NCBI RefSeq assembly: GCF_003334815.1
Contig: NZ_QOWO01000104.1
Length of the DNA: 1,195 nucleotides
Direction: 5' to 3' (one strand)
From: Escherichia coli
GTDB taxonomy: Bacteria > Pseudomonadota > Gammaproteobacteria > Enterobacterales > Enterobacteriaceae
The notes under the pieces are model-generated. The model searched no databases and was not told the DNA's origin. It saw only the letters and a program-made list of their open reading frames with translations. The position numbers and the translations under genes were made by a program. Below, piece after piece: positions 1,128 to 1,179 of this stretch (the first letter of the stretch is position 1; each line of letters starts with the position of its first letter).

Positions 1128-1132
1128 GATGT

Positions 1133-1137
1133 CCCTC
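1133..1137 (-). promoter_or_regulatory. Shine-Dalgarno-like ribosome-binding site for insH (GAGGG on the minus strand)
   Basis: Minus-strand sequence upstream of the start reads ...CCCAGAGGGACATC-ATG; the purine-rich GAGGG lies 5 nt upstream of the ATG, a typical spacing. Confidence 0.5.
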
Positions 1138-1179
1138 TGGGATGCGCTCCGGATGAATATGATGATCTCATATCAGGAA
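1138..1179 (-). promoter_or_regulatory. Putative insH promoter / 5' leader between IRL and the RBS; exact -35/-10 not confidently placed
   Basis: AT-rich interval immediately inside the IR (minus-strand reading: TTCCTGATATGAGATCATCATATTCATCC) with several weak -10-like hexamers (CATATT, TCATAT), a GATC Dam site (1164-1167) and a short inverted repeat ATATGA-N5-TCATAT (1157-1173). Position is consistent with the transposase promoter lying in the IR-proximal region, but no hexamer pair with good consensus and 17-bp spacing was found by eye. Confidence 0.3.

Follow-up and report, generated by a model that had tools for sequence, protein, structure and literature searches.

A Dam site within the -10 hexamer of the very weak transposase promoter of an ISKpn26-type IS5 element

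Does the GATC site in front of the transposase gene of an IS5-like element lie where Dam methylation could influence transposase expression, and which transcript and protein start there? IS5-type elements are among the commonest insertion sequences of enterobacterial chromosomes and resistance plasmids; matches to the element studied here were found in more than 5000 plasmid records and in 2877 of 5426 complete E. coli genomes. Elements of this type also drive the adaptive activation of genes, for instance at bgl, glpFK, flhDC and fucAO. In the ISfinder classification the IS5 family also includes IS903.

Dam-sensitive transposase promoters have been described for IS10 (pIN) and IS50 (T1) (Roberts et al. 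1985; Yin et al. 1988, as cited in PMC11741368), and transposition of IS903 is cited there as also rising in dam- hosts. A first-pass annotation, made from the letters of the DNA, had noted a GATC-centred palindrome upstream of the transposase start and had speculated that IS5 may behave in the same way. We followed this up in the window, i.e., the whole 1195-bp stretch of DNA analysed, and in relatives of the element.

The element and its transposase promoter

The 1195 bp of the window make up one complete IS5-like insertion sequence of the ISKpn26 type, which has its transposase on the minus strand. Element positions (p) were counted from the transposase-proximal (“left”) end along the minus strand, p being 1196 minus the window coordinate. 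Terminal inverted repeats of 16 bp (GGAAGGTGCGAA...) bound the ~1.2-kbp element, as is characteristic of the IS5 group, and the left repeat (IRL) matches the 16-bp IRL given for IS5 in PMC11677980. The window itself has no flanks. Target duplications were read beside other copies and were 4 bp long, of the YTAR type: ctaa/ctaa (L004, L011), ttag/ttag (L008, L010) and caag/caag (L003).

On identical copies, PGAP annotated the same 326-aa CDS as we read in the window, as “IS5-like element ISKpn26 family transposase” (WP_000019440.1). The protein matched NCBIfam model NF033581.1 (transpos_IS5_4) over its full length, with 366.8 bits against a cut-off of 140. Full-length copies with 100% identity were present in many plasmids of E. 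coli, Salmonella and Edwardsiella, and also in chromosomes. The nucleotide identity was 94.6% to the K-12-type IS5 and ~96.5% to ISKpn26. With the latter the element shares the PGAP product name and an identical left-end leader, palindrome included; it differs in length (1195 bp, compared with 1196 bp for ISKpn26) and is ~3.5% diverged elsewhere. The window element is thus a sequence variant of ISKpn26, and not another kind of element.

Several further observations were made on the element and its copies. On plasmid p14EC033d (L001) the IS copy adjoins an IS2 transposase gene, with the junction at locus positions 2695-2699; its flanks, ctaa and ttaa, are an imperfect duplication, which suggests a composite or rearranged insertion. 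Copies with 99-100% identity were also found in assemblies of unrelated taxa, namely Streptomyces morookaense (L026, where the copy runs off the contig end), Methylobacillus rhizosphaerae (L017) and “Rappaport israeli” (L010), likely as a result of assembly contamination or of very recent transfer. Antisense ORFs of 84-98 aa lie on the plus strand opposite the transposase (window 196-462, 222-476 and 555-851), in a region for which a divergently transcribed ins5CB operon has been described in K-12 IS5 (PMC11677980). The strongest local palindrome of the element is a perfect one of 18 bp, ATTCTGCCATGGCAGAAT (window 1020-1037), with an NcoI site at its centre. It lies in the transposase CDS, at the codons for ILPWQN, may be no more than a by-product of the conserved peptide MEQILPWQ, and has nested inverted-repeat matches at positions 159-162.

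The promoter of the K-12 IS5 transposase gene has been mapped. It consists of the -10 hexamer “gatcat” and a -35-like “gtgcga” 17 bp upstream, in the IRL (PMC11894529, Fig. 7C legend). Transcription starts at an “A” 8 nt downstream of the -10, and the IS5 part of the promoter map extends from -41 to +30 (PMC11894529). The same transcription start site (TSS) was obtained by 5'RACE in wild-type K-12, where the promoter was called extremely weak (PMC11677980). The 5'RACE maps of the two papers (PMC11894529, PMC11677980) confirm the earlier promoter assignment by Sawers (2005). Most of the transposase (ins5A) mRNA in K-12 comes by read-through from an outside promoter, PnmpC, and not from the native promoter (PMC11677980).

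Because position -41 of the published map is the first base of the element, the K-12 TSS falls on p42 (window 1154) and position +30 on the G of the start ATG. The Crp site of that map, centred at -61.5 and ending 14 bp before the -35 (PMC11894529), agrees with this numbering. Alignment A1 compares the window element with ISKpn26 and with three further IS5 variants, one of them the K-12-type IS5. The first 34 bases of the element were invariant, except for p18 (T here, C in K-12). This stretch holds the IRL, the -35 GTGCGA, the 17-bp spacer and the -10 GATCAT of the K-12 promoter Pins5A (PIS), and the A at p42 with its TCATC context was invariant as well. A product of 326 aa and a spacing of 68 nt from the element end to the ATG are likewise common to the window element and K-12 IS5. 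The two differ at about half of the bases of the 5'UTR (p35-64), in the codon at p33-35, which is ATG in K-12 and ATC here, and in the palindrome with 6-nt arms around a 5-nt spacer, which is found only in the ISKpn26-type leader.

Since the bases of the published K-12 -10 are identical here, the GATC site lies inside the -10 hexamer (Table 1). It had been assigned to the mRNA leader in the first-pass annotation, and this does not agree with the 5'RACE-mapped promoter of the homologous K-12 element. Overlap of a GATC with the -10 (or the -35) of the transposase promoter is a feature of the Dam-sensitive class, and the window element has it at the -10, with a TSS placed by homology only.

Table 1 Features of the window element (window coordinates; strand “.” for features read on both strands).
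Feature	Coordinates	Strand	Remarks
Right terminal inverted repeat (IRR)	1..16	+	inverted-repeat pairing with 1180-1195; without GATC
Transposase CDS, 326 aa	147..1127	-	start ATG 1127-1125; sole long ORF
5' untranslated leader of the native transcript, 27 nt	1128..1154	-	inferred TSS to the base before the ATG
Shine-Dalgarno GAGGG	1133..1137	-	5 nt (ACATC) before the ATG
Inferred TSS, A (p42)	1154	-	homology with 5'RACE-mapped K-12 IS5
Palindrome ATATGA-GATCA-TCATAT	1157..1173	.	arms ATATGA (1173-1168) and TCATAT (1162-1157); incidental overlap of the -10 region
-10 hexamer GATCAT	1162..1167	-	equal to published K-12 “gatcat”; invariant in alignment A1 and in 11 of 11 distinct left ends of the clade
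Dam site GATC	1164..1167	.	first four bases of the -10 hexamer GATCAT; non-template adenine 1166 is hexamer position 2
TG of extended -10 (TGn + hexamer)	1169..1170	-	sequence TG-A-GATCAT (1170-1162)
In-frame stop TGA closing the upstream frame	1173..1175	-	sequence read
Left terminal inverted repeat (IRL), GGAAGGTGCGAACAAG	1180..1195	-	94% complementary to 1-16
Proposed -35 hexamer GTGCGA, inside the IRL	1185..1190	-	3/6 to TTGACA; homology with K-12; invariant in alignment A1

An extended -10 TG compensates for a poor -35. The TG one base upstream of the GATCAT would constitute such a motif here, as its sequence has the required form; this reading is absent from PMC11894529 and PMC11677980. 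The first-pass annotation had proposed a promoter prediction on the reverse complement of 1128-1195, and this proved uninformative: a generic promoter scan of the window gave nothing at 9 or more of 12 consensus matches, as expected for a promoter that matches only 7 of the 12 consensus positions.

Read on the minus strand, 1128-1195 is the transposase-proximal end of the element with a very weak sigma-70 promoter, in the order -35 within the terminal repeat, 17-bp spacer, extended -10 TG, GATCAT (1167-1162) and probable start at A1154. The K-12 TSS would apply to this variant, though the sequence from +1 on differs. The transcript from A1154 would carry a 27-nt leader with the GAGGG, followed by the ATG of the 326-aa transposase. 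We hold this anatomy of promoter and start to be very likely correct. For K-12 IS5, the start codon and the promoter have been published before, as has the weakness of the promoter.

Translation start, upstream frame and palindrome

The start ATG of the transposase is p69-71. The first-pass annotation had called it as the start of a 326-aa product, with a GAGGG 5 nt upstream, and the call holds: the coordinates are correct, PGAP gives the same CDS, and relatives keep the start. Conservation of the ATG and of the transposase N-terminus extended down to ~57% identity, and a purine-rich AGGG, AGGA or GAGG was found at the equivalent place of the Shine-Dalgarno.

Upstream of the ATG the frame stays open for 15 sense codons after the TGA (TAT GAG ATC ATC ATA TTC ATC CGG AGC GCA TCC CAG AGG GAC ATC), and reading codon by codon agrees with the annotation that it contains no ATG, GTG or TTG. 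In the K-12-type IS5 the codon at p33-35 is an in-frame ATG, located upstream of the mapped TSS; we take this ATG to be the start of the historical 338-aa annotation. The ATC at this place in the window makes a longer isoform with a canonical start impossible in this variant, as annotated, and argues that the longer form was never the functional product. The upstream open frame would be untranslated: it lies mostly upstream of the TSS, and for this reason no longer isoform is expected from the native mRNA.

A longer product could still be imagined to start at a non-canonical codon (ATC or ATA) upstream of M1. Alternatively, an upstream ORF could be coupled to the transposase on read-through transcripts: a 15-codon out-of-frame ORF on the minus strand runs from an ATG at 1171-1169 to a TGA at 1126-1124 and overlaps the transposase start as ATGA. 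The in-frame reading is indeed open for its 15 codons, the out-of-frame ORF is open in K-12 IS5 and H30 as well (three leader types in all), and productive read-through transcripts spanning it exist in K-12 (PMC11677980). However, both kinds of start lie upstream of the mapped TSS and are thus absent from the native mRNA, the in-frame ATG of K-12 IS5 is an ATC in the window, and PGAP gave 326 aa at every copy checked. The ATG of the upstream ORF (p25-27) is accounted for by the conserved extended -10 TGn. In Shewanella, where the leader is 69 nt long, the equivalent p25 codon is a GTG that shares the frame of the CDS, and the overlap as ATGA is not conserved. We consider a longer isoform or a coupled ORF highly improbable. 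As a conserved feature, coupling through the ATGA overlap was rejected, given an ORF start that precedes the TSS and a different arrangement in Shewanella. The 326-aa start is therefore correct for this variant, in which the historical longer isoform cannot exist, and the annotation is unchanged.

The inverted repeat ATATGA-N5-TCATAT, which the first-pass annotation had described as centred on the GATC, is present at 1157-1173 as described; its location in the leader did not stand, as the TSS placed by homology is A1154. Counted from there, the palindrome would span about -20 to -4, i.e., the core promoter, and would not be part of the native mRNA. The annotation had also proposed that a TSS downstream of 1157 would take the palindrome out of the promoter. 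A1154 is literally downstream of 1157, but puts the palindrome in the core promoter.

Could the palindrome have a role of its own, as an operator for a dimeric protein or as a hairpin limiting translation of read-through transcripts? Its 6-nt arms are perfectly complementary, its centre is near the GATC, and it forms in the predicted fold of the read-through RNA. Its occurrence, however, is at chance level. Of the dinucleotide shuffles of the 68-nt left end, 19% held one or more inverted repeats with arms of 6 nt and spacers of 0-10 nt (p ~0.19), and the whole element has eight such repeats, compared with 3.9 expected. As a hairpin of single-stranded DNA it is weak (-2.9 kcal/mol, z = -1.4), and the ribosome-binding site is outside it. 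The right arm, TCATAT here, is TGTTTG in K-12 IS5, TGTACT in Shewanella and TCGCCA, TGATGT or TCGTGT in other lineages; it also differs in H30, in an Aeromonadaceae MAG and in Citrobacter FP75, and even in the 99% identical copy L017 (TCATGT).

Pairing between the left end and the ribosome-binding region likewise gave the palindrome no support. In the fold of the read-through RNA, GAAGGUG of the IRL pairs with CACCUUC of codons 5-7, but RNAduplex scores for the IRL against the ribosome-binding region of 13 lineages were not beyond those of shuffles (z from -1.7 to +1.1). Fold-back inhibition of read-through transcripts, as in IS10, was therefore rejected, the pairing being no better than in shuffles and read-through in K-12 being productive (PMC11677980). 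The Rfam search gave no match in the window at E ≤ 1, and neither antisense RNA nor fold-back inhibition was detected in the window element by Rfam and RNAduplex.

The right arm falls in the variable part of the left end, while the -10 block is constrained, which indicates that the palindrome is an accident of this leader. A function of its own is very hard to reconcile with these results, and the palindrome was rejected as a functional element on account of its chance-level occurrence, its weak hairpin and its unconserved right arm. It would be a by-product of the leader of this lineage and should not be treated as a regulatory element.

Conservation of the -10 block among relatives

A scan of representative genomes for the transposase gave 80 loci with 57-100% protein identity, from which the left ends were cut from the IRL to the start codon. 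All relatives from Enterobacterales, Aeromonas and Shewanella had the sequence TGAGATCAT without variation, despite their unrelated 5'UTRs. At the same position, TGNGATCAT was found in every locus from these three groups and in none from Oceanospirillales or Pseudomonas.

Within this clade there were 11 distinct left ends from Enterobacterales, Aeromonadaceae and Shewanella, with transposases 80-100% identical. The block GATRTGAGATCAT (p22-34) was 92% invariant and the GATCAT 100%, compared with 3% for p35-66, where the pairwise identity between the five deepest lineages was 0.30, i.e., essentially random. What exceeds chance is thus the positional conservation of the GATC-containing block across relatives, not the palindrome. 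Apart from the 16-bp repeat, the right end of the element has nothing in common with the left, and the constraint on p17-34 is therefore specific for the left end, as expected for a promoter. The TG one base before the hexamer, which completes the extended -10, was kept in nearly all relatives (TGAGATCAT, TGAGACAAT, TGCGATAAT, TGGGATAAT).

In more distant relatives this architecture recurs, equally far from the element end. We found it in ~30 distinct ends (64-80% identity) from Oceanospirillales (Marinomonas, Marinobacterium, Motiliproteus, Amphritea, Neptuniibacter, Endozoicomonas and Nitrincola), Pseudomonas and Stutzerimonas. Their hexamers were GACAAT, GATAAT, GAGAAT, AATAAT, GCTAAT, GACGAT or GATGAT, and never GATCAT. 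The position of the -10 is conserved family-wide, and the C that makes the GATC is confined to the clade of Enterobacterales, Aeromonadaceae and Shewanella. Two relatives from Burkholderiales (57-59% identical) have a GATCAT a few bases nearer to the element end; in their closest relatives this place is taken by GATGAT or GATTCT, which shows that it is not a conserved feature.

Neighbour-joining of the transposases placed the GATC-bearing elements in one clade, sister to Nitrincola (AATAAT). The association between the GATC and Dam+ hosts thus represents a single evolutionary event, one gain followed by retention, and no repeated convergence. The GATC was retained also in the pseudogenised copies L068 and L070.

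The 5'UTR (window 1130-1161, p35-66) was almost randomised between lineages (compared with L002, L004, L012, L016, L024, L025, L030, L068 and L070), and the distance from the element end to the ATG stayed at 68-70 nt. Set against the 94-97% identity of the rest of the element, this divergence suggests replacement of the 5'UTR, or relaxed constraint on it, with conserved spacing. The leader of L016 (Kluyvera cryocrescens) is a mosaic, with p35-50 of the ISKpn26/window type (CATATTCATCCGGAGC) and p51-68 of the IS5 type (CATGGAACAGGGTTCATC), which would imply recombination between co-resident IS5 variants.

The GATC site and Dam methylation

The element has only five GATC sites, at 154, 405, 644, 824 and 1164, compared with 7.8 expected, and is thus not enriched in them. 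The terminal repeats (1-16 and 1180-1195) contain none. The site at 154-157 belongs to an AGATCT; it is 5 bp upstream of the stop codon of the transposase, well inward of the right end and outside the terminal repeat. Older reviews presumably already list a GATC within ~50 bp of the IS5 end.

Position 2 of the -10 hexamer is the base flipped out by sigma-70 during promoter opening. In IS10 and IS50, a GATC in the -10 is what makes the transposase promoter Dam-sensitive. Like IS10, IS50 and IS903, the window element lives in Dam+ hosts and has, at its end, a weak transposase promoter whose -10 region is overlapped by a GATC; it differs in that Dam sensitivity has been demonstrated for those elements and would hold for IS5 by analogy. 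The inner end of IS10 and the inside end of IS50 have a second GATC, in the terminus bound by the transposase, a feature not universal to the class. As neither terminal repeat of the window element has a GATC, any effect of Dam would be on expression only.

By analogy with these elements, the way in which sigma-70 recognises or melts the promoter would change with N6-methylation of the position-2 adenine on the top strand, and of the adenine opposite position 3 on the bottom strand. Promoter activity would then depend on whether the DNA is fully methylated, hemimethylated or unmethylated: full methylation would keep transposase synthesis low, and the hemimethylated DNA that follows replication would allow it briefly.

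To our knowledge, Enterobacterales, Vibrionales, Pasteurellales, Aeromonadales and Alteromonadales are the only orders with dam, seqA and mutH. On this distribution, the GATC clade would live in bacteria with Dam, SeqA and MutH. The location of the GATC in the -10, and its conservation only in a clade of Dam+ hosts, make the Dam speculation of the first-pass annotation more plausible than it was. We see a real Dam sensitivity of the IS5-type promoter, argued from its likeness to IS10 and IS50, as a serious possibility that falls somewhat short of an even chance.

The same conservation could equally reflect selection for a weak -10, and thus for promoter strength, or another binding site at the left end. 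The GATC would then have no link to Dam: the GATCAT would be kept as a suitably poor -10 or as part of a left-end-specific protein-binding site, methylation would leave the promoter output unchanged, and the region would simply be the known weak promoter of IS5. The single origin of the GATC, at the base of one clade, agrees with this alternative, as do the conservation of the whole block GATRTGAGATCAT and not of the GATC alone, and the relatives that manage with GACAAT or GATAAT. So does the near silence of the native promoter in K-12, where the bulk of the transposase mRNA comes from read-through (PMC11894529, PMC11677980). Among the papers searched in full text, none reported on IS5 expression or transposition in dam mutants, and insH has no entry in the supplement of a dam RNA-seq paper (PMC11741368).

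On the other side stand the methylatable adenine at hexamer position 2 and the precedent of IS10 and IS50, whose promoters owe their Dam sensitivity to a GATC in the -10. The C at hexamer position 4, moreover, occurs in no element from Oceanospirillales or Pseudomonas, though GATAAT is one step away, and is kept in all elements from Enterobacterales, Aeromonas and Shewanella, the two pseudogenised copies included. A GATC without any link to Dam has a substantial chance of being right, though we would not bet on it outright.

If the promoter is Dam-sensitive, the distribution of hexamers would fit the following history. In the IS5 lineage an A at position 4 of the -10 would have changed to C (GATAAT or GACAAT to GATCAT), a single step that created the Dam site, when the lineage colonised Dam+ gammaproteobacteria (Enterobacterales, Aeromonadales, Alteromonadales). 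Selection would have kept the site since, and, the methylated adenine being the flipped-out base at position 2, the native promoter would fire only on newly replicated, hemimethylated DNA. We put this forward tentatively. The biological weight of such control may be small, since the native K-12 promoter contributes little compared with read-through. Taken as a whole, we regard the explanation given here for the left end of the element as probable; within it, the Dam link is an obvious extension of a known mechanism, plausible by analogy but unproven.

A Dam site in the -10, at a base critical for promoter opening and kept across a clade of Dam+ hosts, makes Dam control of IS5 a cheap and well-posed experiment. 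If it were true, IS5 would be the fourth Dam-coupled insertion sequence, and an example of a mobile element that fits its promoter to an epigenetic system specific to the clade of its hosts.
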